A stretch of DNA of 64,000 nucleotides from an uncultured Gammaproteobacteria bacterium (GCA_964502815.1 CAZCXV010000001.1:71907-135906); one strand, 5' to 3'; positions 36,326-63,155 are shown, counted from the first letter of the stretch. The notes: generated by a model from the sequence alone, not told the origin. Program-made: numbers and translations.

Positions 36326-37462
36326 TTAGCTTAACCAAAAGCCTCTGGCAAACAGACTTAATGATACAGCTTGAAGTAAAATTAACAAAGCCACAACTAG
36401 ATAGCTAAGGTATTTTGGCCACCTTATTAAGTAGATAGTCATCATCATAAATAGAGGAAAGGCAGCTAAAACATACCTCGGCATCGAAGAAAAACTTCCC
36501 GAAAAAGTCGGAATTAAATAAGTTAAGAAAGAAAATACAACATAATCAAGCCTGACCTTTTTAAAAGACACAATTATAAGTAATAAAAACAAGTTTGCTA
36601 TTCCAAATTCCAATACAGTTGTAAATACAACCGGGAAGTAGCCCCATGACAAATTAGGGAGAATCTTAAAAATGTATCTGTAAAAAACTTGGGGGAGAAA
36701 AATCAAACTTGCAGATCTTTGATCTCCAAAAATGGAAATTGTATTCAAGAAGTTTATTGGGTCTCCAGTTATCCTATATAGGTAAATCATATATATTCCC
36801 AAACCTAAAGGAATTAAAAAAAGAGTAACTAAATACCTTGGGTCTTTCTTTTTAAGAAAATCAAAAAATAAACTAGGAAATAAAGATAGGCCTACGATTC
36901 TGGTTGCAGACAAAAGCCCTCCAAAAATACCAGCAAGCAAATATTTTTGCTTTCTAAAAAAATAAAAAGACCACACTGAAAGTAGCAAAAACAAACTTTC
37001 TGTGTAGAAAGCTGCAAAATAAAATGCGGTTGGAAAAGCCAAAAGCAAAACTATTGTAAGCTTTGCAGTTTTCTCATCAAATTCAAGCTTTATTAGTTTC
37101 CATAAGCCAATTAAGGCTACGAGAAACGCTAGATTAGAAACTACTAAGCCAGTAAAGGCTATATTTCCTAAAGATTTTGGTAGTAGGTTACTAATAAAAC
37201 TTACTATTTTTGGATATAAAGGAAAATAGAAATATTGCAAATTTTTGTATCCATTCTGAGAAATGGATAGATAATGTTCACCATCAAAATTTACCCAACT
37301 CCAAAAATATGGTTTCGCTTGGTAATTATTTTTTCCTCCTCCCAAAAAATTAGCCTGCAATGGCACAAAATTGACTGCTAAAAACAAAACTGCAAACAAG
37401 GCCAGTCGCCAAAAAAGAAATGAAAACAGTGGAAATTTGTAATTATTTAGAAGCTTTTTCAT
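36326..37462 (-). CDS. GT-C mannosyltransferase, PIG-V/Gpi18-like (Mannosyl_trans2 family)
   Basis: …WVNFDGEHYLSISQNGYKNLQYFYFPLYP… matches the PIG-V family signature (WDxxHYxxIAxxGY…AFFPL.P). Multi-TM. 378 aa. Confidence 0.45.
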   Translation of the reverse strand: MKKLLNNYKFPLFSFLFWRLALFAVLFLAVNFVPLQANFLGGGKNNYQAKPYFWSWVNFDGEHYLSISQNGYKNLQYFYFPLYPKIVSFISNLLPKSLGNIAFTGLVVSNLAFLVALIGLWKLIKLEFDEKTAKLTIVLLLAFPTAFYFAAFYTESLFLLLSVWSFYFFRKQKYLLAGIFGGLLSATRIVGLSLFPSLFFDFLKKKDPRYLVTLFLIPLGLGIYMIYLYRITGDPINFLNTISIFGDQRSASLIFLPQVFYRYIFKILPNLSWGYFPVVFTTVLEFGIANLFLLLIIVSFKKVRLDYVVFSFLTYLIPTFSGSFSSMPRYVLAAFPLFMMMTIYLIRWPKYLSYLVVALLILLQAVSLSLFARGFWLS

Positions 37463-43514: not shown

Positions 43515-45222
43515 ATTTGTAATTTTTTAGTATTTCAAAAGCCGGCTTGCCATTTAGAAAATTGATTGTTTTAATGTCTATCCAACTGCCCCCGATGTCA
43601 CTTCCAGGTGATGTAATTAATAAACACCTAAGGTGTTCACAGTTTACTTCAACTTTACTCTCGGTAACAAACTTTTGACCAACTTCAGAGCCGATATCCC
43701 AGTCATTTACAAAGTAAAATTTATCAAAACTATCAACCCAATACCAATTGGATTGATAGAAACGATTTAGATTCAAATCAGATCTATATTTAGCAGGATC
43801 CCAAGGCCAGTAAAAAAGAATAAATTCGTGTGGCTCACCATATTTTTTAGTAATAATTATTTTATCGTAATTTTGATAGTTCTCCTTTAAATAAGTAGTC
43901 AGTTCTTTGTATCCATACTGCCATGACCAAGAATAATCATTAGCATAGCTTGTTATGTATTTTGCAGAATAAAGACCCAGGCTAATTAGTAAAATACCTA
44001 AATAAGTAGCTGTAAAAAGTTTAACTTTCAAGTTGTTCCTTTTCACCAAAAAATCTACAATTCCAAAAAAACCAAATGCAGATAAGATCTCTGGAAGAGG
44101 TAGCAGAGCAGAAGATCTCAACACTGCATATCTTTCTTGAGTAATACTAGCTGGAATTGGAGCCAGAAGAAGCCAGATTAGAACTAAACGATAATCTTTA
44201 TTTATTCTTGCTTTCTTAAATAGAATTACTAAACCAAAATAGAAGAAAGGTAAGTTTATAAGATACAAAAGACCATGACCCGGTAAACTAAATTGATACT
44301 GTGTTCCGCCTGTCAAAAACAAAAACTGGGGCGAGAAATAATCCAGATAGTTTTTGCCAAATTCTTTTAAAAAATAGACTGGCCGGTTGTAAATTAGTTT
44401 ACTTACCTCACTCGGCAACTTTGACTGTTGTCTATTCTCGATAATTTTGGCAACTGCGCCTTCATCAATCAAAAAAACCATATTGGATCTAGCCCTAGCG
44501 GTTGGCGAGAAAAGAATAAAAGGCAGTGGAATGAAAAATAGTGCCAATAAAACAATCATTGGAAGTATACCTCTTGCCTTAGTTTTTAACTGGGATAATA
44601 TTTCTTGACGATATGTAAAGATCACAAGAAATAACAGAAGTGGAGAAAATATCCTAGTTGTATGATATGAAAAAAGTGTTAAGCCAAAGCTTAGGGCAGC
44701 CAAAAGTAAAAAGATTCTATTTTTACTTCTCTGTACAAATAAAGCTGCCGCAGTGGTCAAAAAGAAAATTGCCAAGTTTGATTGCAGGACAAATCTTGAT
44801 GTAAACAAAGTCCAGGGGTCAACTGCAACAAGCAAACTTGCGAGAAATCCATACTTTTTTTTCTTAGTTAAGCCTACTGTAAAGAAATAAGTTCCCAAGA
44901 CTGTCCCTACTCCTAAAAGCGCATGTGGGAATCTAATCCCAAACTCGTTTAGGCCAAAAACTACAATTGAGGGAATTGTTAGATATAAATTTAGAGGCAA
45001 AGGATAGTCCCCATACGCACGAAAATTAGTAATAGGTAAAGTTTGTCCCCATTCATCTTTACCCGTTTTTAAAATTGAGTAAGCATTATATCCATGGCTT
45101 ACTTCATCCCAATTCAGGCTTACCGGAAATTTTCCTAAAAAGGTGAATCTCAAGATACCGGCCAAAATAATAATTAAAACTAACAGACTATTGTTGTTAA
45201 TTAAGTTTCTTATATTTTTCAT
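43507..45222 (-). CDS. GT-C glycosyltransferase, PMT/ArnT-like (GT39/GT83), paralog 3 of 7
   Basis: Motifs …LNWDEVSHGYNAYSILKTGKDE… and VDPWTLFTSRF. 571 aa. 8-bp overlap with the upstream paralog. Confidence 0.55.
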   Translation of the reverse strand: MKNIRNLINNNSLLVLIIILAGILRFTFLGKFPVSLNWDEVSHGYNAYSILKTGKDEWGQTLPITNFRAYGDYPLPLNLYLTIPSIVVFGLNEFGIRFPHALLGVGTVLGTYFFTVGLTKKKKYGFLASLLVAVDPWTLFTSRFVLQSNLAIFFLTTAAALFVQRSKNRIFLLLAALSFGLTLFSYHTTRIFSPLLLFLVIFTYRQEILSQLKTKARGILPMIVLLALFFIPLPFILFSPTARARSNMVFLIDEGAVAKIIENRQQSKLPSEVSKLIYNRPVYFLKEFGKNYLDYFSPQFLFLTGGTQYQFSLPGHGLLYLINLPFFYFGLVILFKKARINKDYRLVLIWLLLAPIPASITQERYAVLRSSALLPLPEILSAFGFFGIVDFLVKRNNLKVKLFTATYLGILLISLGLYSAKYITSYANDYSWSWQYGYKELTTYLKENYQNYDKIIITKKYGEPHEFILFYWPWDPAKYRSDLNLNRFYQSNWYWVDSFDKFYFVNDWDIGSEVGQKFVTESKVEVNCEHLRCLLITSPGSDIGGSWIDIKTINFLNGKPAFEILKNYKYD

Positions 45223-46828
45223 TTGTTTTAAACTTTGTATATAAAGCCAAGAAAAGTAAAATTGAGAACAGGCTTAGGTAATTACCAATTTTTCTGTATA
45301 GCGTATCTTCAAATTTTAAAACAATCTCACCTTCTGTTTCTTCGATTTCAATCAATCCATCCCTTGCTGGAGTCGTTTTAAGTTTTTTGCCATTTGAATA
45401 TGCCTGCCAACCTGGAAAGTAGTTGACCGGAAATGCTATTTTTCCGTAAGAATCAGAAACATTGTAAACAATCTCGTTTGATTTTTTGTCAACCAGTGTC
45501 TGGCCGCCAAAACTCTCAGGTGCGATCTTGTTAGGTATGACCGGAGAATATATTGGCCAGTAATCGCCTACCGAAGCGTGTTTTTGTTCTTCCAAGAGTC
45601 CTCCTGATGATAAATCAGTATCTGAATAATTGTGCCAAATATCCGGCCTGAAGTAAGAGGAGTTCAAAACAAAAAGCCCAACCATAATTGCAACCAGACT
45701 TGGAATTGTAAGTTTTCTTGGCAGTACTTTTATAAATACGCCTGATGCTAAACTCAAAGCAAAAACTAAGATACCCAAGAATCGCCATGGGAACTGAATA
45801 AAAGACATTTGGTAGATATAGTCCCAAACGACAATAGATCTATTGTTAATTAGAAAGACAATTACAATACTTATTAGTATTAAAACAACAAAATCTTTGT
45901 ATTCCCAGAGCTTTCTTTTGAAGAATAAGACTATTCCAGTTGCAGCTGGAATAAGCCACTGGAAAAAGCCGATTGAAATATTTAGGTCATCATCTGATCC
46001 AAATAAAGAAGCGCCATAACCCCAATTAACTGAAAAAAGAAGCTGTTTTATGCCTGCAAAATGACCTCTAAAGTTAAAATAGCCTTTAATGGTGTTATCA
46101 AGCGAAACATATTTTGACTCAAAGACAATCGGTAAAACGTAAAAACTCACTATTCCAAGAGACAGTAATCCCGCCAAAAAAATTGCACCTACAGTCTTGA
46201 TCTTTCTATATATAACCAATCTGTAAATCATCCAAATTGTCAAGAAAGGCATAAATAAAACAAATGAGAGATTGTGGTTAAGTATTAGAAATGCCAAAAA
46301 CAAACTAAACAACATTAGATCACTTTTCTTCTTCGCCTTTAGATATTTTTCCAAAAACAAAATAATCAATGGATAGAAAACAAAGCTCAGACTTTCTGGA
46401 AGCGCTCCTCTGACCCAAACATCAACTGCTCTATAGGGCGCATAAAGATATATAGCAGCACTTAAGAATGCCGAATATTTACTACCCCACATTTCACGAG
46501 CCAAAAAATACATCGCTACAGCAGAACCTATTAAAGAAAAAATAAAGAGAAGCTTAAGACTATCAACCAAGGAAAAGCCCAATAAGTGAAAAATTTCCCC
46601 GAAAGCATATGACAATTGACCATAGAAGACAAACAGTGGTTCGCCGTAACCCAGACCTACATCAGGTGACCAACGGCAAGGCAGTTGTAAGTCCTTGACA
46701 CATTTATCAAACTCAAAAAGCCTAAAAAAGTGAAAGTCTTGCATGGAAAATATGCCTGGCTTAAGCATTAAGTAAAACGTTGGAATAGACAAAAGAATAA
46801 TTAGTCCAAAAAATAAAAACTTTTTCAT
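45197..46828 (-). CDS. polytopic membrane protein, GT-C-like (family distinct from the PMT-like paralogs)
   Basis: 543 aa, about 13 TM helices. No DE…LKTGKDE motif. Embedded inside the PMT-like tandem array with 26-bp and 4-bp overlaps. Confidence 0.3.
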   Translation of the reverse strand: MKKFLFFGLIILLSIPTFYLMLKPGIFSMQDFHFFRLFEFDKCVKDLQLPCRWSPDVGLGYGEPLFVFYGQLSYAFGEIFHLLGFSLVDSLKLLFIFSLIGSAVAMYFLAREMWGSKYSAFLSAAIYLYAPYRAVDVWVRGALPESLSFVFYPLIILFLEKYLKAKKKSDLMLFSLFLAFLILNHNLSFVLFMPFLTIWMIYRLVIYRKIKTVGAIFLAGLLSLGIVSFYVLPIVFESKYVSLDNTIKGYFNFRGHFAGIKQLLFSVNWGYGASLFGSDDDLNISIGFFQWLIPAATGIVLFFKRKLWEYKDFVVLILISIVIVFLINNRSIVVWDYIYQMSFIQFPWRFLGILVFALSLASGVFIKVLPRKLTIPSLVAIMVGLFVLNSSYFRPDIWHNYSDTDLSSGGLLEEQKHASVGDYWPIYSPVIPNKIAPESFGGQTLVDKKSNEIVYNVSDSYGKIAFPVNYFPGWQAYSNGKKLKTTPARDGLIEIEETEGEIVLKFEDTLYRKIGNYLSLFSILLFLALYTKFKTNEKYKKLN

Positions 46829-48438
46829 TTTGAAACTATGACAACGGCTGGATCACCATTTGGATAATTAATTGTCTCTAGCGTGGTCACTGTCATACCT
46901 TGAAAATCATCTATCTTGCCAATCAAGTAGGTATCTTCAGCCAAGTCGTCGCCTTCAATATCTTTAAAGGTGTACTTGCCAAGTTTATATTCAGGCATTT
47001 GATCTACCCAATTAACGTCGCTTTCTTTATACCTCCAATCTTTGGAATAGTTTTGATAAACAGCTGGATCAATTCTTTGTGCAAAAGCTGTATATATGTG
47101 CGGCTCGGACAAAGATTTATCAACAATTACCTTATTGCCGTCATTTGGCAGTTTTTCCAGAGCTTCGAGTCGGCCATACAACATAGCTTTTGCAGTTTTA
47201 TGTTGTGATTCAATAAAGTAATCTTCCAAGAAGAATACAACAGAAATAAACATTACTAAGCTAAAGACATAGATTACTAACTTATATTTCTTGAGGAAAG
47301 TGAAAAAATAATAAGCTCCGACTCCCAATAAAATCTCAATAGACGGCATCATAATTGCTGCTCTATTGGCAGAATAGCCCACGCCAGTTGCCAATGAAGT
47401 TGGTATCACAGAGAGAAGCATCCAGAGAACAAGAAATACCAACCACTTTCTTGCGCTTTTGTTGTCATCTTTGGAAAATGCCTTCCCTAAAAACAAAACA
47501 AAGAGAATACTAAACCAATACAACACACCCCTACCTGGAATCATGCCATATGTGGCTTCGTTTGGACCATTAGCAAATAGAAATTGGGGGGATAAATAAG
47601 TGACATAGTTGCCAGCAAACCTTTCCACAAAAACCAAGTATTTATTGTGAAAAATCCTCGACAGTGCATAAACTTGTGTTCCATACAAACTCTTTCTTTG
47701 GTTAAAAGCTTCTTCCAAAGCACCTTGCGTAATGCTTCTTTCAGCAACCCTTGCCCCAGCACCTGCAAAAAAAGTATAAACAGTGAGTAGTATAAAGCCA
47801 GAAAAGGCAATTATTGCAACAAGTATGTCTTTGTTTGGTTTTATTAGATAACCTTTCAATTCTTGCCATTGAAGTACTACCAAAGTTAAAAGAATAAAAG
47901 GTGTAACAACTTTTGCCGAGTGGTAGCTAAACAAATTCAAACCCATAATAATAGCAGCAAGGCTAAATTTCTTGTTTAAGAAAAAAAGTACCCCAAGCGG
48001 CAGAAAGAAGGTTGTTAAATTTGCTTCAAATGCCCCTCTTGAGAGCATGATATGCCATGGAGAAATGGCTAACATTAGGCTTGCAAAAAGAGCGACACCT
48101 TCTTTTTTGAAGAGTTTTTTAGATAGTAAATAGACAACTACTACTGCAAATGATCCCAAAAGTGCATTTGGCAGCCTAACTGCAAATTTAGTCAAGCCAA
48201 AAAGAAAAATAAAAGGAACTGTCAAATAGGTATATAAAGGTGATTTATAGTCTCCGAAAGATTCAAAAACCAAAGGCCAAGATTTTCCCCATTGATCTTT
48301 GCCTGTTTTCAAAAGTGAATAGGCATCGTAGCCAAAAGAAGCCTCGTCAGGTGTAAAGCCAGTTGGGTGAGTTGTCAAGCCAATAATCCTTGCCACCAAG
48401 CCAACTATACATATGCCAATCAAAAGCCACTTGTGCAT
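46825..48438 (-). CDS. GT-C glycosyltransferase, PMT/ArnT-like (GT39/GT83), paralog 4 of 7
   Basis: Motifs …FTPDEASFGYDAYSLLKTGKDQ… and ISPWHIMLSRGAFE. 537 aa. Confidence 0.6.
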   Translation of the reverse strand: MHKWLLIGICIVGLVARIIGLTTHPTGFTPDEASFGYDAYSLLKTGKDQWGKSWPLVFESFGDYKSPLYTYLTVPFIFLFGLTKFAVRLPNALLGSFAVVVVYLLSKKLFKKEGVALFASLMLAISPWHIMLSRGAFEANLTTFFLPLGVLFFLNKKFSLAAIIMGLNLFSYHSAKVVTPFILLTLVVLQWQELKGYLIKPNKDILVAIIAFSGFILLTVYTFFAGAGARVAERSITQGALEEAFNQRKSLYGTQVYALSRIFHNKYLVFVERFAGNYVTYLSPQFLFANGPNEATYGMIPGRGVLYWFSILFVLFLGKAFSKDDNKSARKWLVFLVLWMLLSVIPTSLATGVGYSANRAAIMMPSIEILLGVGAYYFFTFLKKYKLVIYVFSLVMFISVVFFLEDYFIESQHKTAKAMLYGRLEALEKLPNDGNKVIVDKSLSEPHIYTAFAQRIDPAVYQNYSKDWRYKESDVNWVDQMPEYKLGKYTFKDIEGDDLAEDTYLIGKIDDFQGMTVTTLETINYPNGDPAVVIVSK

Positions 48439-50084
48439 TAATTAAGTATAGCTTGGGTTCTGATGATATAAAAGGCTGGTTCCCCACTAGGAGCAAAAAT
48501 CGTTTTATCCAGCCTAAGTTTAGGATCTCCGGAGAATTCTGATGGATACAGTCTAGCTGCAGGAAAAATGAAAATCGTGCCTGTGCTTCCACGTTCACTT
48601 GGCCAATCAACTTGTCTAAATTCAAACCGACCAACTTTTTCTGGCCTTATTTCAGCAGGATTTTGATAATAATCTTTGCTAGGAAGTAAATTAGCAGCCT
48701 GTGTTTGGTAAGCTTTCATTGGCACTATCTGATAGAAAAGCAGATTAATATAACTTTCAGTACGGGCATCGTCGATAACGACTCTTAAATTATCTGGTTG
48801 AGTTTTTAGATAGCCAGCAATTTGCTTGTAGCCATAATCCCAATCACGCCAGTAAAATACTGGTGTAAACTTTAGTAAGCTAAACATAAAGGTAGAAACT
48901 GAAAACAAAGTCACGATAACGTAAGAAATGGTTGCAAGTTTTTTCAGTTTAGTTGTCATTTGTAGCGCTTGATAAATACCAATTGCAATTATTATTGAAA
49001 CAGGCAACCAGAAAAGAATTGACCTATAAGTATGGAAAGGGTCACGCGTTAGGGCAGCAGGCAATGGTCCAAGAAAAAGCCAAATCAGTAAATACTTCTT
49101 GTTTTGCAAAAAACTATGCTTTATACCAAACTTGTTTTTGAGAATTGTCCACAAGCCGATAATGAAAAAAGGCAATTGCCAGAAATAGAAGACACTGAAG
49201 TTTGGCAACCTTCTTTGAACATTATAGTCTCCCTGCCAAAAAATATTTGCTGGAGAAAAATAATGCAAATATAAAGATAGGATTTCCCTGGGTACCAGGT
49301 AGAACTTTTGCCAATCTCCCGAATCGCTTCTGTAGCCAGGAACTGGCATGCTACTAGAAAAAATACTTACTCCCACTGCCCGGTGATAACCTGCAGCTTT
49401 AGTGGTCAAGCTCAAAACTGGAAGGTAGAGAACTATTGCCAAAACCGCTCCAACTATCCAAAGCTTCCACTTTTTCCACCAAGCTTTTTCTAGAATTATT
49501 GATATGGCAATAAATAAAGGTGCCACCGGTCTTGGAGCTTGATAACTATACATTGACAAAACAAAAGCAATAATGCTTAGTAAAAACCATTTATTTAGGT
49601 TTGACTGCTTAAACTTCAGCCAAAGATAAACTCCAAAAGCAAAAAACAGTAGTGATAAATTACCTTCAAAAGCCCCTCTACTATAAAAAATTGCCCACGG
49701 AGAAGTGGCTACAATCAAGGCAGAAATTAGACCAATTACTGGATTGTTAGTAATTTTCTTGGTCAACAAATAAGCAAGGTAGGTAAGTGCCACTCCAGAC
49801 AGGGCTGATAAAAATATGGCCGAAAATTCATTTGGTCCAAAGATGGCAAAAATAGGAACTGAAAGATAAACATAGGCAGGCATAAAAAATACTTCAAACG
49901 ACCTAAAAATGATTGGGTATTTTTGGCCAAACTCATCCGCTCCGGTTTTTAAGATCGACCAACTGTTAAAGCCCAAGGCAGCTTCATCTCTAAAAAAACC
50001 TAAGTCTGCAGACCCAAGATGGTAAAAACGCAAAACAATAGCCAGTGAAATAATTAGAAGTAATAACTTATTGTTAGACATCAT
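48438..50084 (-). CDS. GT-C glycosyltransferase, PMT/ArnT-like (GT39/GT83), paralog 5 of 7
   Basis: Motifs …FFRDEAALGFNSWSILKTGADE… and TSPWAIFYSRGAFE. 548 aa. TAATG 1-nt stop/start overlap with the downstream paralog. Confidence 0.6.
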   Translation of the reverse strand: MMSNNKLLLLIISLAIVLRFYHLGSADLGFFRDEAALGFNSWSILKTGADEFGQKYPIIFRSFEVFFMPAYVYLSVPIFAIFGPNEFSAIFLSALSGVALTYLAYLLTKKITNNPVIGLISALIVATSPWAIFYSRGAFEGNLSLLFFAFGVYLWLKFKQSNLNKWFLLSIIAFVLSMYSYQAPRPVAPLFIAISIILEKAWWKKWKLWIVGAVLAIVLYLPVLSLTTKAAGYHRAVGVSIFSSSMPVPGYRSDSGDWQKFYLVPREILSLYLHYFSPANIFWQGDYNVQRRLPNFSVFYFWQLPFFIIGLWTILKNKFGIKHSFLQNKKYLLIWLFLGPLPAALTRDPFHTYRSILFWLPVSIIIAIGIYQALQMTTKLKKLATISYVIVTLFSVSTFMFSLLKFTPVFYWRDWDYGYKQIAGYLKTQPDNLRVVIDDARTESYINLLFYQIVPMKAYQTQAANLLPSKDYYQNPAEIRPEKVGRFEFRQVDWPSERGSTGTIFIFPAARLYPSEFSGDPKLRLDKTIFAPSGEPAFYIIRTQAILN

Positions 50085-50088
50085 TAAT

Positions 50089-50664
50089 CTACCTATTAAG
50101 GGTAATTACGATAAATAAAACTATTTCAAGCGCTGAAAATAACCCCAAAGCGATTTTTCCCTTTAAAGGCCAGGTAAAAACTCTTTGCAATCCCAATGCC
50201 ATAACCAAAATAAACGGAAGAGAAAGAAAAATTGTTTGATTAAAGTCCCGCCACTTGAACAAAAAAACAAACAGAAGTAAAACACTAGTAGTAGTTAAAA
50301 GAAAATTTTTATATTTTTTTATACTTTTACTTGTAAAACCAACCATCATCAAAACTAATTGAAAAACAAAGAACTTTTGTTTTTCTTCAATGCCAACTCT
50401 TTCTCTCGGATGACCTATAAAAAAATAGTTGCCAATGTCCAAGTTCTCCATAACAACAGCAAGTCTTTGGGCAACAAACTTTGTCGGCCAATTAATGAAA
50501 ATGGAATTTAGTGGACCAGGTTGTACTTTCCCCCTTTCCCAAACCACCTCAGTTCTAGCTTGTTGAATATCTTTGTTGAGTTCTAAATTAAACATCTCCT
50601 TTGGAATAGGAGCATACCAAAACCAAGGCGTCAAAAGAATCACTAATAAAGTAGCCAATATCAT
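50089..50664 (-). CDS. small polytopic membrane protein, paralog of the C-terminal half of 52644-53480 (GT39-associated accessory protein)
   Basis: 191 aa. Shares the …NYFFIGHPRE… / …NYFFGFQPRQ… motif and following TM helices with 52644-53480. Directly upstream of a PMT-like gene. Confidence 0.35.
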   Translation of the reverse strand: MILATLLVILLTPWFWYAPIPKEMFNLELNKDIQQARTEVVWERGKVQPGPLNSIFINWPTKFVAQRLAVVMENLDIGNYFFIGHPRERVGIEEKQKFFVFQLVLMMVGFTSKSIKKYKNFLLTTTSVLLLFVFLFKWRDFNQTIFLSLPFILVMALGLQRVFTWPLKGKIALGLFSALEIVLFIVITLNR

Positions 50665-50683
50665 CTAACAATTATGATACGAT

Positions 50684-51370
50684 ATGTGGATGAAATTGTC
50701 TGTAGTTATTCCAGTTCTCAACGAAGAAAAAACGATAAATAAAATACTCATTAAAGTTCTAAAACAAAAAAGCGCTGTTGAAGTAATTGTTATAGATGAT
50801 GGATCGACGGATAGGACGCTAGAAGTTTTAAAGAACTTCAGCAAAACAAATAAAAAAATAAAACTTCTTCGCCACAAAAAAAACTTAGGCAAGGGAGCGG
50901 CAGTGATCAACGGATTGAAAAAAGTAAGTTCGGACTATCTATTAATTCAAGATGCCGATTTAGAGTACAATCCTGATGAGTATATCAAGCTTGTGTCTAA
51001 GGTTAGTGCCGACACAGTTGTCTATGGATCAAGAATGATAAAAAAGAACACCCATGCTTATGAAAGAACATATATCGGAAACCTTGTTCTCACTTATATC
51101 TGCAATTTTCTTTTTGGAACAAAGCTAACGGATTCTTATACTTGCTACAAACTGTTGCCCACAAAGATTGCAAAAAAACTAAATCTTAAATCTCAAGGGT
51201 TTGAGTTGGAAGCAGAGATTACTGCTAAGCTTGCCAAAAAGAAAATTAATATATTTGAAGTCCCAATTTCATACTCACCACGAAAATACGAAGAAGGCAA
51301 AAAAATAAAAGCGCTTGATGCCCTTAAGGGAGTATTTACCTTATTAAGGATTAAGTTTACAAATTACTAG
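50684..51370 (+). CDS. GT2 polyprenyl-phosphate sugar synthase (DPM1-like, soluble short form)
   Basis: Motifs LSVVIPVLNEEKTI, VIDDGSTDRT and QDADLEYNPDEY. 228 aa. The start may be the second ATG (MKLSVVIP, 50690). Confidence 0.6.
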   Translation: MWMKLSVVIPVLNEEKTINKILIKVLKQKSAVEVIVIDDGSTDRTLEVLKNFSKTNKKIKLLRHKKNLGKGAAVINGLKKVSSDYLLIQDADLEYNPDEYIKLVSKVSADTVVYGSRMIKKNTHAYERTYIGNLVLTYICNFLFGTKLTDSYTCYKLLPTKIAKKLNLKSQGFELEAEITAKLAKKKINIFEVPISYSPRKYEEGKKIKALDALKGVFTLLRIKFTNY

Positions 51371-52620
51371 TATTTACTTCTTTTCCAAATGACCAAAATA
51401 GCTACAAAGACTATTAAGTTTATACTCGCCAAAATATAAGACAACGGAGAGTTTATCAAAATATTCTCCAAAAAAGGCAATGGTGGTACCCAGAAAAGAT
51501 GATATAAGTTAACTAAGTTTGAAAGTGACAAAAAGACAAGTGGAATCAGCCAAATCGGATTCAAACCAACTAACAGCGTTACATAGGGGAAAAATGGATA
51601 AAGATAGCGTTCATGAATTCTGGTCATAAAAAGAAATGAAGTTAATGAAATCACTACTAAAATAGTAAATACTTTTTTTTCACTAATTTTTTTCATTAAA
51701 TAAAAAGAAGAAAATGCAATTACTGAAAGAAGGGTTATTATTCCCCAAACTCTTGCCGACAAGCCAAGATACGCGGCGGAATCCAAAGTCTTTCCTGAGT
51801 CGACCAGCCACCAAAAATTGAAGGTATTGGCCGTTAGTGAGCCAATTTCGCCTGGGAAAAATTTCTGGGTATACAGGTTGTATAAATAGATTGGCAGGTC
51901 AAAAGCGGGATGAAACCAAACAGCAATTGCAATCACAACCAAACAACTTAAAGCACATGCTTTCAGCCAAGTGTTAAATTTGTATTTTTGGAGTAAAGCA
52001 ATTGCAAAAATACTTGGAACAAAAATAGCCAATGAACCTTTAAACAGCAAAGATAAGACAGTGAAAACACCAGCTTTGACCAGTTTTTTATCCATTAAAG
52101 CAACAATTGCAACAAGTCCCAGTAAGTTAACTGTTGCATCAGTTTGACCCCAAAGAGCTGAGTTGTACCAAATTACTGGATTAAAAAGCCAAAGAAGGGA
52201 GATCTTCTCCCCTATTTTTTTCTTCCCCTTTTTAGAAAAAAATTTATATAAAACCACAGCTATTAAAAAGTCAGCGATTATTGCCGGGGTTTTAACCAAC
52301 AAATCCATGCCTTTCAGTTCCCAAAACCAAATAAATGAAGATGGAAAAAATGCAAGCTTGGCATTAAGATCCCAAGAGATATCGGCAACTGTTTTATAAA
52401 CAAACGACGTTAGAGAAAAAAGCAAAATATAGAGTGGTGGCTGATTGGGAGCCGAAAATGGCCAGGCTTTACCATCGTAATAATTTACCAACCCTCTTGA
52501 AACCGCCTCATTCCCCCAGGAGATGTTATTGTTTAAATCACCATGATGAGCTTGAAAAACAAGCCAAATTCGAAAGATGAAGGCAAGTATCACTAAAAAC
52601 AGCAGCAATTTTCTATTCAT
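51367..52620 (-). CDS. polytopic membrane protein, GT-C-like (DUF2029/GT87-like?)
   Basis: 417 aa, about 11 TM helices. N-terminal loop with HHGDLNN…YYDGKAW… and a WGQTD segment. Family assignment is tentative. Confidence 0.3.
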   Translation of the reverse strand: MNRKLLLFLVILAFIFRIWLVFQAHHGDLNNNISWGNEAVSRGLVNYYDGKAWPFSAPNQPPLYILLFSLTSFVYKTVADISWDLNAKLAFFPSSFIWFWELKGMDLLVKTPAIIADFLIAVVLYKFFSKKGKKKIGEKISLLWLFNPVIWYNSALWGQTDATVNLLGLVAIVALMDKKLVKAGVFTVLSLLFKGSLAIFVPSIFAIALLQKYKFNTWLKACALSCLVVIAIAVWFHPAFDLPIYLYNLYTQKFFPGEIGSLTANTFNFWWLVDSGKTLDSAAYLGLSARVWGIITLLSVIAFSSFYLMKKISEKKVFTILVVISLTSFLFMTRIHERYLYPFFPYVTLLVGLNPIWLIPLVFLSLSNLVNLYHLFWVPPLPFLENILINSPLSYILASINLIVFVAILVIWKRSKY

Positions 52621-52643
52621 CTGCTAAAATTGTATCATTATCC

Positions 52644-53480
52644 ATGTTTAAAAAACGATTTTTTATAATCTCTCTAATACTGATTTATTGGCCTTTAAGT
52701 ATCTTTTTTGCCAACACTCCAAAGGATTTCCTAAATTATCTCTTGCCAACCTTATTAATTCTGATAGCCTATCTACTCTACAGAAGAAAAAACCAGTATT
52801 ATCTTGTTCCCACACTAGCTATTCCTTTTATTCAACCAAAATTAGCTGTTTTACCTTTAGTATTTGTGATAATTGATGGTATTTATTCTTTTAAATCGAA
52901 AAAGAAAATCAATAAATTTGTTATTATTGCTTCTCTAATTATTCTAATGCTCTTTTTTAAGCCTTTTAGAAACCAAAGCATCTTTGTAACTGACAATAAT
53001 TCTAAACAAGAAGTTATTCAAAAAATACATTTATATCCAAACATTCCACTAGCCAGACTATTTCAAAATAAAGCCAGAATTTACCTTGATAAATTAAACA
53101 ACAATTTTTTCTCCCTGACTGACCCAAGCAATTACTTCTTTGGCTTCCAACCAAGACAAATTAGCCTAAACAATCAAAATTTGGATAAATATCCATTTTT
53201 AACACTCATTCCTTTTCTTTTTGGCACCTATTATTTTGGCAAAAATAAAAACTTAAAGTTTATTTTAATAACTTTTATAGGATCAATCCTCACTCTATCT
53301 CTACTAACAAATTTTGACCGGCATGACTTTATCTTATGGCTACCAATAAGCTTAGTTATTATCTTTGGCTTAGACAAACTGGAAAGTAAACTGGCTAACA
53401 AAACTAAATATTTCAATTTTATTTTTGTTCTTTTCGGCATCGCCCAGTTACTCAGATTATTTGTCCAATATTTGAAATAA
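52644..53480 (+). CDS. polytopic membrane protein; C-terminal half paralogous to 50089-50664 (GT39-associated accessory protein)
   Basis: 278 aa. Shared NYFFG.QPR motif and TM topology. Stop is 1 nt before the start of the PMT-like gene 53482. Confidence 0.35.
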   Translation: MFKKRFFIISLILIYWPLSIFFANTPKDFLNYLLPTLLILIAYLLYRRKNQYYLVPTLAIPFIQPKLAVLPLVFVIIDGIYSFKSKKKINKFVIIASLIILMLFFKPFRNQSIFVTDNNSKQEVIQKIHLYPNIPLARLFQNKARIYLDKLNNNFFSLTDPSNYFFGFQPRQISLNNQNLDKYPFLTLIPFLFGTYYFGKNKNLKFILITFIGSILTLSLLTNFDRHDFILWLPISLVIIFGLDKLESKLANKTKYFNFIFVLFGIAQLLRLFVQYLK

Positions 53481-57687: not shown

Positions 57688-58584
57688 TTAACTAAATTTA
57701 GCAAAAATTGCTTCGTCTGAAATAGTTGCGTCTTTTTTCTCTCTTCTTCTAAGTTTTGACACTAAGCCAAATTTTAGAAGAGCGAGAAGAAAAATCCTCG
57801 CGTAACCTGGATGTCTTAATATTCTTTTTAGAAGTCCCTGAATATGTTTTCTAAATATTCGTTGGCTGGTTATGTTTTTCCAAATCGTTAGAAGCTCGTT
57901 TCTTTGCCTAATTGAAAGGACATAGCTTGTTTTAAGTTTCGAAATAACTGCTTCATGTTCATGGACTACTTTTGCATTTGGCTCCCACAAAAGCTTGTAG
58001 CCTCTTTTTTGAGCTCTATATGAAAGATCAACATCTTCCCAGTAAAAAGGCGACAGCAGTTTTTCATCTAACCCCCCAAGTTTCATCCAAATGCTTCTTT
58101 TAAAAACCCCGCTTCCTCCACTTATCCAAAAGGAATTAGTTGCCTTGTCTGTTTCCTTGCCTGGAATGAAATTAATAAAACCCCCTTTAAAACTGGCTCC
58201 AGCTGGACCAAAGCCTTTTTCGTGCAAAGAAACACCAAACACTTTTTCATTGCCAAAATGTGGCAAAACAAATTGCAGGAAATCTTCTGTCACCGAAACG
58301 TCGGTATTAAGAAGACACAAAAGCTCGCTCTTGGCAGCTCTAGCACCAGTATTGACTGTTGCAGAAAAGCCTCTGTTTTTAGTGTGCTTGATGAGCCTAA
58401 TTTTGTCTTTAAAGTTTTTAAGCAAAAAATCGAGCGAATTGTCTGTTGATTTATCATCAATAATAATTATTTCCTGAATATTATTTTTTTTGTTTTCCAA
58501 AGCTTTAACTACCGATAGCAGATGTTTTGGCATAATACTCTCGCCGTTAAAATTTGGGATAATTATTGACACCGAGTTAATCAT
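57688..58584 (-). CDS. GT2 family glycosyltransferase
   Basis: Motifs VSIIIPNFNGES, IIDDKSTDNS and LLNTDVSV. 298 aa. Confidence 0.6.
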   Translation of the reverse strand: MINSVSIIIPNFNGESIMPKHLLSVVKALENKKNNIQEIIIIDDKSTDNSLDFLLKNFKDKIRLIKHTKNRGFSATVNTGARAAKSELLCLLNTDVSVTEDFLQFVLPHFGNEKVFGVSLHEKGFGPAGASFKGGFINFIPGKETDKATNSFWISGGSGVFKRSIWMKLGGLDEKLLSPFYWEDVDLSYRAQKRGYKLLWEPNAKVVHEHEAVISKLKTSYVLSIRQRNELLTIWKNITSQRIFRKHIQGLLKRILRHPGYARIFLLALLKFGLVSKLRRREKKDATISDEAIFAKFS

Positions 58585-59246
58585 ATTTTTCTGGCCTTCA
58601 CTATGTTTAGCATACCCAAGATAAACTTATCGTCTCTTTCAACTTTTAAGCCCGACTTTGCAACCACCTTGGCTAAAGGGTTTTCTTTTGAAAAAGACTG
58701 AACATGACAGTCTTTCCAAATTCTAGCCCACCAAAACTTTGTTACAAAGCCCCAAATAATTGAGAACAATAAATTGTCAGAAGGTACTAAAAAAATTGCA
58801 TAACCACCTTTTTTCAAGACTCTTTTTACTTCTCTAAAAACAATTAAGGGCTCAAAAACATGTTCTAAAACTTCCAGGGCAAAAACAGCATCAAATGAAT
58901 TGGCTGGAAAATCCAATTCATGAGCGTCGCCCGTCTTAAATTGCATTTTTTTGTTTTTCTGCCAGTGATTATTGGCCCAGGAGACAGAAGATTTCAAGAC
59001 ATCAATACCAATCAAGCTTTTGGCCTTAGTTCTGTCTAAAATAACTTTACTAAAAACTCCATCTGCAGAACCAATATCCAAAACCTTCCCACTTTTAGTT
59101 ACCTCAATCAATTCTCCAACTTTCTTGAATCGTCTTTGATGCCAATATCTTTGCAAAATATTTCTTTTGATTGAAGCATAATACCAATCAGGCGGAACAT
59201 TTTCATGCAGCTGGCTTGCATTTCTGGTAGTTTTACTATTTGCCAT
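58581..59246 (-). CDS. class I SAM-dependent methyltransferase
   Basis: Motif I VLDIGSADGVFSKVIL. Downstream …ALEVLEHV…. 221 aa. Confidence 0.55.
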   Translation of the reverse strand: MANSKTTRNASQLHENVPPDWYYASIKRNILQRYWHQRRFKKVGELIEVTKSGKVLDIGSADGVFSKVILDRTKAKSLIGIDVLKSSVSWANNHWQKNKKMQFKTGDAHELDFPANSFDAVFALEVLEHVFEPLIVFREVKRVLKKGGYAIFLVPSDNLLFSIIWGFVTKFWWARIWKDCHVQSFSKENPLAKVVAKSGLKVERDDKFILGMLNIVKARKI

Positions 59247-59248
59247 CT

Positions 59249-60790
59249 TTAGTTTCTTTGTCTGTATTGAATAATTAGTTCTCCCCAGTTTTTCTCCTCA
59301 ATTAACTTGGAGTGAACATTTTCTTCTCCAACAGTTAAGCCTAGGTATTGTACTGGAATGCCCCCCATAGGTTCCAGTATCAAAAAGTATTTTTCAGTCG
59401 AGTCTTTTGTCTTTGCTAGTCCCCCAAGCTGACCTATTTGATCTCTGCCGTGCCACTCGGGCAGATAATCATATTTCTCTTGACCGTGCCATTTATACAA
59501 AAAATCCCAAACAATATTAACCCATAGTGGACTAGTCAAAGAGTTAATACTAAAAGATTCGCCTCCCGCCTTTTCATATGTGTAATCAACAGCATCTAAT
59601 TGCTTAGAGAGAAGCATATCTTTTTGGATGGCAAACAAAGTACTACCTCGGGAGTTTTCGCGAAGAATTAGAGATAAATTGCCAAAGATTAAAATAAGGA
59701 TAACTGCAATTGATACCAGTTTATATCTACTCCACCAGTTAGAAAGATAAATACCTAAAAGAATAGAAACGGCAGGACCTATGCCAACCATTAAAAATGG
59801 CGTACTCACCCCACCAACGGTCACGACCGTCAAGTGACTGAAAAGCCAGGTTGCCAAAAACGGCTGCCAAGAAACTAACTGGAGTTTCTCCTTTTTTCTA
59901 TCTTTGCTCCAACTAACTAAGCCAACAAGAATAAGGATAATTACAAATCCACCGCCATAGCCAATATTTCCAGGATAGCTATTAAAGGCAAAAATTCTAC
60001 CTACTTGGTTAAGGTATAAAGTAAGATAGTCGCCAAGAGATTTTGCATAGGCAAGATTTGTGTCACTGGAAACAACAAGTCCCTTCAAGCCTTCAATTCC
60101 TTTAAAGCCAAATTTAATTTCATTTAGGATCATTGTTGAAACTGAAATGAGCAATGTGAAGAGAAAGACAGAAATTTGCTTTCTGGAAATATTTTTTCTG
60201 GCAACATATGTCCAAATAGCAACTGGCACCATATGGTAAGCAAGAAAAATCTCTGACTGAATAGAAAGACCAAGACCAAGAGCGCAGAGAATTGACCCGA
60301 GGAGTTTTTTCTTTGAATCAGTTGACCAAAGCCAAAGACCTAAATACATTAAGGGGACTGTAAATACCGCTGGTGTTGGATTAGATAACCAAGTGGCATA
60401 TTGGCTTGCCTCAAAAGAGATAGCAAACAAAAAAGATGCCAAAAGCGCAGTCCAAACTTTTTTAGTCATCAAGTAAGCAAGCGCAAATATTAGTAAGACA
60501 GTTGCAGTATTTACAAAAGCTATCCAATAAGCTGCAACAATTGGACTACCTTTACCGACTAAATAGGCTGGAGCTAATAGATAATAATAAAATACGCCGT
60601 GATACAGCCCCGGCTGAGAAGCAGGTGGGCCTTGTATTTTTAGATCTCCGCCAAGAATTTGTCCGGTAATCGTTGCATCTCTTGCCTGGTCGTAGCCAAA
60701 AGTCAGTGCATTTTGGGGTAAAAACATAACCCTTAATAAATACGCCAGAATAAAAACGAAAAAAAGACCCAACCAGGCCAACCTAGTCAT
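59249..60790 (-). CDS. polytopic membrane protein, possible GT-C superfamily member
   Basis: 513 aa, about 12 TM helices. N-terminal loop …TFGYDQARDA… and a C-terminal soluble tail. No confident family match. Confidence 0.25.
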   Translation of the reverse strand: MTRLAWLGLFFVFILAYLLRVMFLPQNALTFGYDQARDATITGQILGGDLKIQGPPASQPGLYHGVFYYYLLAPAYLVGKGSPIVAAYWIAFVNTATVLLIFALAYLMTKKVWTALLASFLFAISFEASQYATWLSNPTPAVFTVPLMYLGLWLWSTDSKKKLLGSILCALGLGLSIQSEIFLAYHMVPVAIWTYVARKNISRKQISVFLFTLLISVSTMILNEIKFGFKGIEGLKGLVVSSDTNLAYAKSLGDYLTLYLNQVGRIFAFNSYPGNIGYGGGFVIILILVGLVSWSKDRKKEKLQLVSWQPFLATWLFSHLTVVTVGGVSTPFLMVGIGPAVSILLGIYLSNWWSRYKLVSIAVILILIFGNLSLILRENSRGSTLFAIQKDMLLSKQLDAVDYTYEKAGGESFSINSLTSPLWVNIVWDFLYKWHGQEKYDYLPEWHGRDQIGQLGGLAKTKDSTEKYFLILEPMGGIPVQYLGLTVGEENVHSKLIEEKNWGELIIQYRQRN

Positions 60791-63155
60791 ATAGCCAAGT
60801 ATACCCCAAAGCTAACAGCAAAATCAGCACTGAAAATAGACTAATTTTTAATCCCAGATAAAAAGAATTTGGTTGATATACAAATCTGACTATATGTTTT
60901 CCTGGGGGAATGACAACTGCCCTGTAATTATAATTTGCCTTATAGATTTCTGTTTCTTTGTCATCAACAAATGCTTGCCAATCAGGATAAAATGCTTCAG
61001 ACACAAATAATAGCCCCGCTTTTTCAGTTTCAACATTGAGAATACTTCTCTGAGGGGAATAATTTAGATATTCTACTGTTGATTTTGCAAACCGGAAATC
61101 CTTTGCTAGTTCGAGATCTTTTTCCAAAACTATCTTTTTGGAATAGGGATAGTTTACCTGAAGCAACTTTTCTAAAGCTTTCTTTCCATCCGATTCTATT
61201 TCCCAATCGTAAACCATAAAAGCCCTATTAAGAGCAGTTGTACTTTCTAAAACTGCAACGCTTTTGTCCTCAAAGGCAATATTAAATCTTTTAGTATCAA
61301 ACCTTTCAGGGATTTTTCCCTCAGGAGATGGTTTGCCACTAGAATCTTCTTTTAAAACTAAATAGTATTTGGTATTTACCAAATCAAGAAGTGGTGAGAC
61401 ATCATTATCTACTATGCCATATCTACCAACCGGATGAGACTCGGCAGTTCCACTATTGATAGCTGAAACAAATCTAGAAATACCCAGAGGATGAAAAGTA
61501 TCATAACCCTCTACCGTCTCCAAACCATATGCCATCCTGATATTTGAAGGAATTACTTTTGCCCCTGTTGTCCTAAAAGGTTTTTCTTGTGCCATCAAAA
61601 ATGAAATAACCGGAGTTTGTGGATAGATAAAGTCCCTTGGCGAGAATGGCGTGAACTTAAATGCAAAATAGAAAAGCTCCAAAATACAAAGGCCGATCAA
61701 CAATATTTTCAACCGTGTCAAAAACATAATTACAAAAAAAGACAAAACCAAGACACCAAAAGGCAAAAGCAAATTCCTGGCTGCGGTCCTAAAAACATCA
61801 ATTCCTCCGTGAGTAATAATTCCTTTTAAGCTAAAGGCATAAACTCCGAAGCCAACTAGCAATAAAAGAAGAACAGCAACAACCAAGATTTTGTATTTGT
61901 TTTTTATTTTTGCCTCAAGAACATCAAAACCGAAACCAGCCAACAGAGCACCAGCTGCAGTAAATAGTATAGTTGCCCGATGTGCAGAGTTTGCCTTCAT
62001 GCCAAGAATATCATTGGACCAAATAAACGTTGATAATGGAGTTGGAAAAGACAACAACAGGGAAACTACCATTAACAGAAAACTAAAGAATATTTCTTTT
62101 TTCATCTTTATTTTCACCAGAGAAACCATTGACAAAATAAAAGCTACAACGCCAATATAACCAGTATTTGAGGTGTAGTCTTGTGGCCCCCAATAATTTC
62201 TTGTCGAGTGATTACCAAAGAAGTCTGAAGAAATGAATGTAATAACCTTTTGCCAAGGCAGGAATGCCCAAGCAAAAGGATGGGGTTCAAAACTTCTTTG
62301 GGAATTTTTGATAAGTTCTAAAGAAGGTAATATTTGAACAGCAGAAAGTCCTAGAGAAAATAGACAAAATACTGCTAATAAAGCTGTTTTTGAAATTATT
62401 TGTTTATCTTTCCAAACTCTCACCAGCCACAAAAGTCCCATGGCAACAGCGGCATAAACACTGGTTTGGGTATAGCCAGAAAAAAATTGTAATGCCAAAA
62501 AGACAGACAACAATACTCCGTCAGAAAATTTCTTTTTTGTCAAAAGTCTGTCTTCAAACAATAAAACCAAAGGAATAAAGGCAGAAGCTAGAGTATGACC
62601 ATTCCACTGAGAAAAAATAATATTGTAGCCGGAAAAAGCAAAGACAATTCCTCCAAGAATTGCTCCAAGTTTTGATACTTTCCAATACCTTAAAAGAAAA
62701 TAGGTAAATGCTGCAGCCAATAGATGCTGCAATATTATCTGCATGCTCCAAGCAGTTGTTTTATCGAAAAGAAAGTACAAAAAACTGGTAGGTGAAAAGG
62801 GAGCTGACTGAAAATTGGCTAAAAGCGGCGAACCAGTCAAAATATAGGGATTCCACAAAGGCCAAATTCCTTGTTTGAAAAGTTCCATTGCAAATGTCTG
62901 CATTGGATAGGTATAAGAAACAACATCTGTAGTAATAGGGTTTTTTACAGGAACACCGGCAACATATCCCCATTTGTAGTCAAGCCAGGGGTAATAAACA
63001 CCAACAATAAAATCTCCAGGCAAAGGAACTTGGTTTTTTAAGATTACTTTCCAAAAGAAAGACAGGACTATTAAAATAAGTACAAAGATTGGAAGTAGAA
63101 ACTTAAAGAAGCGCGAGTAGTTCTTTTTCAAATCTTGCATAGCTAAATTTATCAC
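60783..63155 (-). CDS. YfhO-family membrane glycosyltransferase (GT-C-like)
   Basis: 790 aa polytopic protein. N-terminal …GDFIVGVYYPWLDYKWGYVAGVPVKNP…FAMELFKQGIWPLWNPYILTGSPLLANFQSAPFSP… resembles the conserved YfhO N-terminal region. Recognition is from memory, so moderate. Confidence 0.45.
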   Translation of the reverse strand: MINLAMQDLKKNYSRFFKFLLPIFVLILIVLSFFWKVILKNQVPLPGDFIVGVYYPWLDYKWGYVAGVPVKNPITTDVVSYTYPMQTFAMELFKQGIWPLWNPYILTGSPLLANFQSAPFSPTSFLYFLFDKTTAWSMQIILQHLLAAAFTYFLLRYWKVSKLGAILGGIVFAFSGYNIIFSQWNGHTLASAFIPLVLLFEDRLLTKKKFSDGVLLSVFLALQFFSGYTQTSVYAAVAMGLLWLVRVWKDKQIISKTALLAVFCLFSLGLSAVQILPSLELIKNSQRSFEPHPFAWAFLPWQKVITFISSDFFGNHSTRNYWGPQDYTSNTGYIGVVAFILSMVSLVKIKMKKEIFFSFLLMVVSLLLSFPTPLSTFIWSNDILGMKANSAHRATILFTAAGALLAGFGFDVLEAKIKNKYKILVVAVLLLLLVGFGVYAFSLKGIITHGGIDVFRTAARNLLLPFGVLVLSFFVIMFLTRLKILLIGLCILELFYFAFKFTPFSPRDFIYPQTPVISFLMAQEKPFRTTGAKVIPSNIRMAYGLETVEGYDTFHPLGISRFVSAINSGTAESHPVGRYGIVDNDVSPLLDLVNTKYYLVLKEDSSGKPSPEGKIPERFDTKRFNIAFEDKSVAVLESTTALNRAFMVYDWEIESDGKKALEKLLQVNYPYSKKIVLEKDLELAKDFRFAKSTVEYLNYSPQRSILNVETEKAGLLFVSEAFYPDWQAFVDDKETEIYKANYNYRAVVIPPGKHIVRFVYQPNSFYLGLKISLFSVLILLLALGYTWLYD

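Follow-up and report, generated by a model that had tools for sequence, protein, structure and literature searches.

Our analysis shows that two small membrane proteins encoded in a 64,000-nucleotide stretch of DNA from an uncultured Gammaproteobacteria bacterium (GCA_964502815.1, CAZCXV010000001.1:71907-135906; hereafter the window, with positions counted from its first nucleotide) are truncated, non-catalytic paralogs of the GT-C glycosyltransferases encoded directly downstream of them. The initial annotation, made from the sequence of the window alone, had noticed both proteins, here called A and B, immediately 5' of PMT-like glycosyltransferase genes and had stated that it did not recognise their family. 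That gap is now filled, as family profiles, bridging proteins of intermediate length and the alignment register that they provide identify the small proteins as shortened GT-C enzymes. Both open reading frames (ORFs) were confirmed in position, strand and length, and the genes and motifs concerned are as follows.

50089-50664, minus strand: small protein A, a GT-C-derived ORF of 191 amino acids (aa)
48438-50084, minus strand: PMT_48438, the PA-type PMT_2/ArnT-like GT-C enzyme that is the partner of A; 548 aa, full length, RDEA catalytic motif kept
52644-53480, plus strand: small protein B, a GT-C-derived ORF of 278 aa
53482-55137, plus strand: PMT_53482, the PB-type PMT_2/ArnT-like GT-C enzyme that is the partner of B; 551 aa, with a Pfam PMT_2 match
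50398-50439, minus strand: loop motif of A, D76-IGNYFFIGHPRE-R89, invariant in the A family
53121-53159, plus strand: loop motif of B, D160-PSNYFFGFQPR-Q172, with D160, N163, Y164, F166 and P170 invariant in the B family

Each small gene does lie directly 5' of a PMT-like gene. The A junction reads TAG-ATTA-ATG, which puts the start codon of PMT_48438 4 nucleotides (nt) past the stop codon of A, and the B junction reads TAA-T-ATG, so that only 1 nt separates the stop of B from the start of PMT_53482; PMT_2 (PF13231) matches both downstream genes, PMT_48438 at 1.3e-14. The initial annotation had proposed that this pairing is conserved and dedicated, and the gene neighbourhoods of homologs support it strongly. 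We assembled 84 loci seeded with the small proteins, called their ORFs and scored them with three hidden Markov models (HMMs); a profile scan of contigs for the A family gave 4 loci. The loci contain 89 small-protein ORFs; 79 of these are followed by at least 240 nt of sequence and were counted as informative, and in all 79 the next gene on the same strand is a PMT-like ORF. The two reading frames overlap by 4 nt in 45 of the 79 pairs, and most of the remaining pairs lie between -1 and +2 nt. When the small proteins are clustered at 90% identity, 63 clusters have the partner, 8 stand at contig ends and none lacks it. PMT-like genes are frequent in these loci (224 of 694 ORFs of at least 150 aa), yet too few to explain 79 out of 79. 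The reverse approach gave the same answer: partner-clade enzymes taken from a homolog search with PMT_53482, without regard to any small gene, have a B-family gene ending at their start in 4 of 4 cases, and these upstream genes match the B HMM at E-values of 1e-83 to 1e-108.

The pairing is also exclusive on the side of the enzyme. Average-linkage clustering of 161 distinct full-length PMT-like proteins placed all 47 partners in a single cluster that contains no non-partner, and a tighter threshold divides this cluster into PA (5 enzymes, with A-type partners) and PB (41 enzymes plus one outlier, with B-type partners). The PA/PB split mirrors the A and B families, and therefore the two-gene unit has been duplicated and has diversified as a unit. 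Two other accounts of the arrangement were considered and rejected. A and B do not compensate for a part missing from their partners, as the PA clade shows only a short loop deletion, and they are not one end of a GT-C gene split by a frameshift, as the downstream gene is complete with its own first transmembrane (TM) helix and DE motif. Two loci depart from the common pattern: at L077 (region 678-1469) the partner ORF has just 263 aa though the contig runs on for about 8.8 kb, and at L074 (1-746) the B-type gene falls into two ORFs, of 169 and 82 aa, owing to either a frameshift or an error in sequencing. Both are possibly rare cases of decay.

A and B are themselves paralogs, as had been suggested from the motif that they share. 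Compared pairwise by BLASTP they give a marginal match (24% identity over 167 aa, E=0.03); homolog searches returned 49 proteins for A and 52 for B, and profile-profile comparison of the two families with hhalign (31 A and 40 B sequences) establishes the homology with a probability of 96.9% and E=1.3e-10 over 172 columns. In addition, plain HMMER matches four B-family proteins from other loci to the A-family HMM at E-values of 1e-8 to 1e-10. The hhalign alignment pairs A 14-190 with B 103-278, so that the similarity spans essentially all of A and is not limited, as first described, to the motif and the helices after it. The motif itself reads N79-YFFIGHPRE in A and N163-YFFGFQPRQ in B, giving the common pattern NYFF[IG][GF][HQ]PR[EQ]; it is real and statistically supported, though the pattern in the initial annotation had one position too many, and a chance resemblance is ruled out by the match between the family profiles. 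The A-family alignment has 30 invariant residues, including TPW.W, F.NW and E..D..NYF.GHPR.R.G..E.QKFF, and the B-family alignment has the invariants LY..AR..NK...K..D..NYF.F...P..N.N..K. Five of these residues (D160, N163, Y164, F166 and P170 in B numbering) are still invariant when the two alignments are merged.

The relationship to the GT-C enzymes is seen at the level of profiles. The PMT_2 paralogs of the window carry a mid-protein 'YFSP.N.F..GD...R' that by eye resembles the motif region of the small proteins, and when A and B were compared pairwise with the membrane proteins of the window, BLAST and phmmer found marginal matches only. Against the seven PMT_2 paralogs of the window, hhalign aligned B with 92% probability (E=6.4e-7; B 108-246 with PMT_48438 236-373) and A at E=3e-4 in the same register as B, and A directly matches the HMM built from these seven paralogs (E=4.5e-5, HMM positions 219-412). 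A broader GT-C profile was made from the 161 PMT-like proteins gathered from the related loci. To this profile A aligns with 97.5% probability (E=2.8e-11; A 1-203 to profile 211-427), B with 97.7% (E=6.9e-12; B 1-279 to profile 122-429) and the merged A and B alignment with 98.7% (E=3.4e-15), and the alignments are collinear along the full small proteins.

Proteins of intermediate length bridge the small proteins and the enzymes. A profile search with the merged alignment through 1.84 billion representative proteins found 466 clusters at 50% identity (E<=1e-3), among them proteins of about 430 aa that match the A HMM at 1e-20 to 1e-32 over residues ~145-315 and also match the full-length GT-C HMM at 1e-14 to 1e-32 in three collinear stretches; several of them have sub-threshold Pfam matches to PMT or PMT_2. 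In a local MAFFT alignment the 430-aa forms retain the enzymes' N-terminal landmarks 'LRFW.LG..P.GL' and 'SPWH'. About 35 residues of the catalytic loop EL1 are deleted from them, and 14 of 15 have another residue in place of the Asp of the Asp-Glu pair. These proteins (P0303, P0304, P0309, P0310 and others; L085 2530-3822) keep TM1, the SPWH segment, the A-type loop motif and the C-terminal soluble domain, and they occupy the slot of A, between a GT2 gene and a PA-type enzyme. The gene after P0304 is a PMT_2 gene that overlaps it by 4 nt, and its product is of PA type, being 46% identical to PMT_48438 and 33% identical to PMT_53482.

The loop register of the 161-sequence hhalign alignment is about 12 residues off a motif-to-motif alignment, and the register was therefore taken from the bridging proteins, which were concordant in 10 of 10 cases. 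In this register A N79-Y-F-F-I-G84-H85 corresponds to PMT_53482 N293-M-F-I-L-G298-D299, A R89 to R303 and A G109 to G323, so that the motif of A is the counterpart of S-P-x-N-x-F-x-x-G-D-x-x-x-R in the loop EL4 of GT-C enzymes. Where the enzymes have the Asp of their 'GD' pair, A has His and B has Gln, and across the B family the residue is His, Gln or Ala. The family can be named as GT-C-derived because three lines agree: the hhalign match to the GT-C profile, the 430-aa bridging forms and two AlphaFold models that concur with each other. Existing models do not detect it. Neither A nor B has a Pfam match at E<=0.1, PMT_2 (PF13231) and PMT (PF02366) included, or an NCBIfam match; the Pfam PMT_2 and PMT models describe the N-terminal region of the enzymes, and A and B do not have this region. 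A sequence search of the PDB with the A and B profile returned chance matches only (AMPK beta and ND4L at E>0.2).

The two AlphaFold models, built from separate alignments, are those of B (pLDDT 89.4, pTM 0.87) and of PMT_53482 (pLDDT 90.1, pTM 0.89). In EL4 and TM8-11 the helices of B have counterparts about 130 residues further along PMT_53482, with little variation in this shift, in the following pairs.

B 143-159 with PMT_53482 273-287
B 162-165 with PMT_53482 291-297
B 185-196 with PMT_53482 314-329
B 204-219 with PMT_53482 331-346
B 227-249 with PMT_53482 360-385
B 251-277 with PMT_53482 390-424

The B model thus has four TM helices after the motif, where the initial annotation had described two to three. 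In a Foldseek search of the PDB, GT-C enzymes (STT3A, AftA and PglB among them) make up the whole of the first six matches for the B model, and the best fold match of PMT_53482 is ArnT (5ezm, E=2.5e-7), followed by STT3, AglB, PglB and ALG9, with PIG-U also listed. Assuming that the catalytic loop and the C-terminal domain both face outward, the PMT_53482 model predicts seven TM helices before the long loop (4-25, 88-113, 116-131, 145-163, 169-183, 187-201 and 209-231), then EL4 at about 236-313, four further TM helices and a globular domain at 428-551. This layout matches the published architecture of GT-C_A enzymes, in which a 7-TM conserved module is followed by a variable module that supplies most acceptor contacts and, in the solved enzymes, lines a groove at the module boundary (PMC13503287). 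The variable module has four TM helices in ALG9 and ALG12 as well, and both of these enzymes have a lumenal domain (PMC13503287).

On this reading, A would consist of one TM helix, EL4 and TM8-11, crossing the membrane five times, and B of TM3-7, EL4 and TM8-11, crossing it nine times. The part that both retain, EL4 with its amphipathic helices and the four TM helices after it, would then be the variable module of a GT-C_A enzyme. What both have lost is TM1, the catalytic EL1 with its Asp-Glu, TM2 and the C-terminal globular domain; the absence of TM1 and EL1 follows from the alignments, which begin at about position 122 of the GT-C HMM in B and 211 in A. The seven-TM conserved module is incomplete: the loop is preceded by a single TM helix in A and by five passes (TM3-7) in B. 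Short loops with positive charge ('KSIKKYK' in A; 'KSKKKINK', 'GKNKNLK' and 'KLESKLANKTK' in B) and the homology to EL4 both fit an outward orientation of the conserved loop. A short B-related subtype of about 195 aa (P0093-P0100; L058, L060 and L061; L088 1209-1796), also followed directly by a PMT-like gene, keeps the first TM helix of B ('FWPLNL') and seems to have lost TM2-5 of B by an internal deletion. Given such a deletion, the N-terminal 'LTPWFW' helix of A may stem from the TM3/'SPWH' segment, or else from TM7. A Glu in the middle of the last TM helix of A (E180, window 50125-50127) is invariant in the A family; the equivalent residue is a consensus Glu in the B family, Gln in the B protein of the window and Ser in the two window partner enzymes. 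Such a residue, buried, acidic and peculiar to the small proteins, could matter for their function.

The small proteins are under purifying selection. The median ratio of non-synonymous to synonymous substitution rates (dN/dS) is 0.09 (Nei-Gojobori, 19 pairs of B-type genes), and each family has 21-30 invariant residues at a mean column identity of 48-56%. Where the source names an organism or a titled genome record exists, the organism is a member of the Woesebacteria, barring two records labelled Gammaproteobacteria. These two (L003 and L004; CAYIDT010000075.1 and CAYITS010000005.1), titled 'uncultured Gammaproteobacteria', hold A-type/PMT pairs with small proteins 51-53% identical to the A protein of the window, and the contigs are probably mis-binned.

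As to what the small proteins do, we lean, with restrained confidence, towards the reading that A and B are non-catalytic, enzyme-derived subunits that act together with the downstream enzyme, broadly as PIG-U does. The upstream copy of a tandem GT-C duplicate would have lost catalysis first and shrunk afterwards, passing from a full length of about 550 aa to 430 aa with EL1 deleted, to 278 aa (B) and to 191 aa (A). The small gene would be co-transcribed and translationally coupled with one specific GT-C clade, and in that case both proteins would be made together. From this genetic coupling we infer a physical complex, in which the small protein probably assembles with its own enzyme in the membrane; GT-C enzymes commonly form dimers of paralogs, Pmt1-Pmt2 being an example. 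Within such a complex, at the outer leaflet, the small protein would hold one of three molecules, namely the sugar donor linked to polyprenyl phosphate, the lipid carrier after its release or the acceptor, or alternatively it would stabilise the enzyme, and it may affect the activity of the enzyme. Its role would be a reduced form of the one proposed for PIG-U. A role with a lipid phosphate or an acceptor appears the most economical, because the variable module is retained and the outward D..NYFF..(H/Q)PR aligns with the Arg motif of the enzymes. Among the roles listed in the initial annotation (a flippase analogous to GtrA, a substrate-presenting partner or a stabilising partner), the latter two fit a GT-C ancestry best, judging from the sequences.

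Several observations weigh against a subunit of this kind. Both partner clades are complete, with the DEA motif, all TM helices and the C-terminal domain, and there is nothing obvious in them for a small protein to complement. In a mirror-tree comparison over 13 loci the signal between B and its partner (r=0.83, partial r=0.65) is barely stronger than that between B and a neighbouring ALG6-like gene (r=0.77, partial r=0.46), and B evolves faster than its partner (mean distance 0.87 vs 0.49). The Foldseek matches of the B model to GT-C enzymes are weak, the best having E=0.02, with TM-scores of 0.3-0.44. Finally, tight coupling would be equally expected of a pathway partner, for example a flippase, that never touches the enzyme.

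The genes next to the pairs bear on this question, and two of them lie between A and B.

50684-51370, plus strand: GT2 enzyme (GT2_50684) without TM helices, 228 aa, divergent from A; Pfam Glycos_transf_2 at 1.8e-35
51367-52620, minus strand: ALG6-like polytopic membrane protein, 417 aa, divergent from B, with start codons 23 nt apart

A divergent GT2 gene lies upstream of the A-type genes or 430-aa forms wherever there is sufficient upstream sequence (L001, L002, L004, L055, L085, L086 and the window), that of L085 and L086 being upstream of a 430-aa form; these orthologs are 58-64% identical to the L085 GT2 and 60-67% identical to the GT2 of the window. The closest solved relative of GT2_50684 is the Dol-P-Man synthase (DPMS) of P. 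furiosus (5mlz, 1.5e-17), followed by ArnC and GtrB, and GT2_50684 is without TM helices, unlike the 374-aa P. furiosus DPMS. By similarity it would be a polyprenyl-phosphate sugar synthase of the DPMS/ArnC/GtrB-like type and probably makes a lipid-linked donor. The B-type genes mostly have no dedicated GT2 adjoining them. In 22 loci, the window among them (others are L005, L008, L014, L016 and L017), a homolog of the ALG6-like gene (45-59% identity) is divergent from the B-type gene and lies 7-85 nt upstream of it, which makes the ALG6-like gene a frequent neighbour of B, not an obligatory one; its sole Pfam match is Alg6_Alg8, below threshold, and it has no NCBIfam match. With this gene the B module may have a second functional link that is conserved.

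The pairs sit in a very large envelope-glycosylation island, which takes up about 35-63 kb of the window (35057-63972). It includes several GT2 and GT4 genes, the ALG6-like gene 51367-52620 and the genes listed below, and a small partner is present for 2 of its 7 PMT_2 genes.

Starts 40138, 41814, 43507, 46825, 48438, 53482 and 55163: seven PMT_2 GT-C paralogs
45197-46828 and 60783-63155: two YfhO-like proteins
59249-60790: 513-aa polytopic protein of no family
36326-37462: 378-aa protein with a weak PMT_2 match
35057-36322: Wzx-like protein
58581-59246: 221-aa ORF

The gene order suggests a different role, in which the small protein would be a putative flippase or scramblase that moves the polyprenyl-phosphate sugar made by the DPMS-like GT2 from the cytoplasmic to the outer face for use by the GT-C enzyme. 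It would thereby fill the slot of GtrA or ArnE/F in a three-component system while being unrelated to those proteins. The order GT2, small membrane protein, GT-C is kept in all A-type loci with upstream sequence and around the 430-aa form, as in gtrB-gtrA-gtr, and A is the only multi-TM ORF of 60-199 aa outside larger ORFs in the window. The retained motif, which aligns with the conserved Arg-containing EL4 motif of the enzymes, and the invariant E180 in the last TM helix of the A family would suit such a function. There is also a precedent in a PMT-like family, as purified Agl23, an archaeal PMT-like protein, is reported to translocate a lipid-linked glycan (PMC11182771). Neither A nor B matches the Agl23 model TIGR03663 at E<=0.01, and the partner enzymes reach 26-33 bits on it, a weak similarity below the curated cut-off of 126 bits; the model spans about 435 positions and does not describe a fragment. 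In the Pfam and NCBIfam scans A and B show no homology to the SMR family, Wzx, MurJ or GtrA (PF04138), and a relationship by descent to GtrA, with which the initial annotation had drawn an analogy, is thus not borne out. Furthermore, the B-type genes usually have no adjoining dedicated GT2, a Wzx-like protein is encoded elsewhere in the island, and the strict clade-for-clade match to the enzyme exceeds what a shared donor flippase would need. Overall we consider a flippase unlikely, although for A the conserved GT2 gene alongside lends it some support from context. A bolder form of the proposal seems to us distinctly unlikely, namely that in these bacteria a free-standing variable module (EL4 and four TM helices) stands in for GtrA or ArnE/F and supplies the missing translocation or hand-off of polyprenyl-phosphate sugars, within a three-gene system of a DPMS-like GT2, a GT-C fragment and a GT-C enzyme; if it were true, half a GT-C fold would suffice to bind a lipid-linked monosaccharide and carry it across the membrane.

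Pseudoenzyme paralogs are often regulators, and the ancestry and tight co-expression that argue for a subunit would agree equally well with a negative regulator, a dead fragment that competes with or caps the variable module or substrate groove of the enzyme and so damps or gates its activity. A stoichiometric inhibitor that is always co-translated with its target and kept in more than 60 non-redundant loci and 466 clusters is less parsimonious than a required subunit, and we give this possibility little weight. Still less probable is a membrane anchor or activator of the GT2 enzyme, comparable to DPM3 for DPM1 or Ppm2 for mycobacterial Ppm1. GT2_50684 does lack the TM helices of its closest solved relative and is conserved divergently beside the A-type genes, but nearly all of the non-membrane mass of A is in the loop 19-95, which by EL4 homology and the positive-inside rule would face outward, away from a cytoplasmic GT2, and the cytoplasmic loops of A have just 8-10 residues. 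In addition, the B-type genes usually have no GT2 neighbour, and it is the GT-C gene, rather than the GT2 gene, that invariably accompanies the small genes. That the small genes are non-functional remnants of tandem GT-C duplications, still open by chance, would agree with their origin as GT-C fragments and with the split B-type gene of L074. The dN/dS of about 0.09, the invariant residues, the 466 clusters at 50% identity, the confident AlphaFold model and the conserved start-stop overlap with the partner leave this explanation a negligible chance, and decaying pseudogenes are excluded by the selection and conservation data.

An enzyme-derived partner subunit, which is the reading we prefer, has parallels and differences in known systems. 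The nearest relatives are the PMT_2/ArnT-like GT-C_A enzymes themselves (CAZy GT39/GT83-like; ArnT 5ezm), with which A and B share a gene cluster and lineage. Within the membrane domain of these enzymes the homology of A and B lies in the C-terminal half, and that of B extends to TM3-7; unlike the enzymes, A and B are without TM1, the catalytic EL1, a complete 7-TM module and the globular domain, and they fall below the Pfam models. The closest precedent for such a subunit is PIG-U of the glycosylphosphatidylinositol (GPI) transamidase: it is homologous to GT-C enzymes, has no DxD motif and is believed to act as a scaffold that binds or presents the lipid substrate next to a catalytic partner (PMC6056205, PMC12653191). 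PIG-U (Gab1) is like A and B in being GT-C-derived and in having lost the acidic catalytic motif, but its 12-TM fold is complete, whereas A is a fragment of 5 passes and B one of 9. Its partner is a transamidase, whereas the partner of A and B is a GT-C enzyme, in a putative complex suggested by the gene coupling.

Dedicated membrane partners are familiar among GT-C enzymes, as in PIG-X with PIG-M, the accessory subunits of oligosaccharyltransferase (OST) and the paralogous Pmt1-Pmt2. The GT-C enzyme Gpi14 similarly works with the membrane partner Pbn1 (PMC12653191). Unlike A and B, Pbn1 and the OST subunits have no relationship to GT-C, and in the Pmt1-Pmt2 pair each protein is an enzyme of full length, not a truncated non-catalytic paralog like A or B. 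The gene-order logic of GtrA, ArnE/ArnF and GtcA, in which a GT2, a small polytopic protein and a GT-C enzyme are combined, matches the A-type loci and mostly does not match the B-type loci. These proteins differ from A and B in sequence, ancestry, size and number of TM helices and are without a large conserved outer loop; GtrA has about 120 aa with 4 TM helices, compared to 191 aa and five passes in A and 278 aa and nine passes in B. Our literature searches returned no account of a GT-C variable module that stands alone, and none of GT39-type genes in Patescibacteria. The A/B family is new to Pfam and NCBIfam, and it is a variant within the known GT-C superfamily rather than a system of a new kind.

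Across all domains of life, GT-C enzymes construct the glycans of the cell surface, and they are usually seen as self-contained units of a conserved catalytic and a variable module. Stand-alone variable modules that are under strong purifying selection and tied to one clade of enzymes suggest that the function of the variable module is separable from catalysis, whether this function is binding of the lipid carrier or acceptor, stabilising of the enzyme or possibly translocation of the donor. The successive steps of the passage from enzyme to accessory protein (about 550, 430, 278 and 191 aa) are also preserved in the family, in small-genome organisms that spend tens of kilobases on GT-C genes. 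Defining this widespread family of accessory proteins would improve annotation, and it would give structural biology a compact GT-C fragment with which to ask what a variable module does alone.

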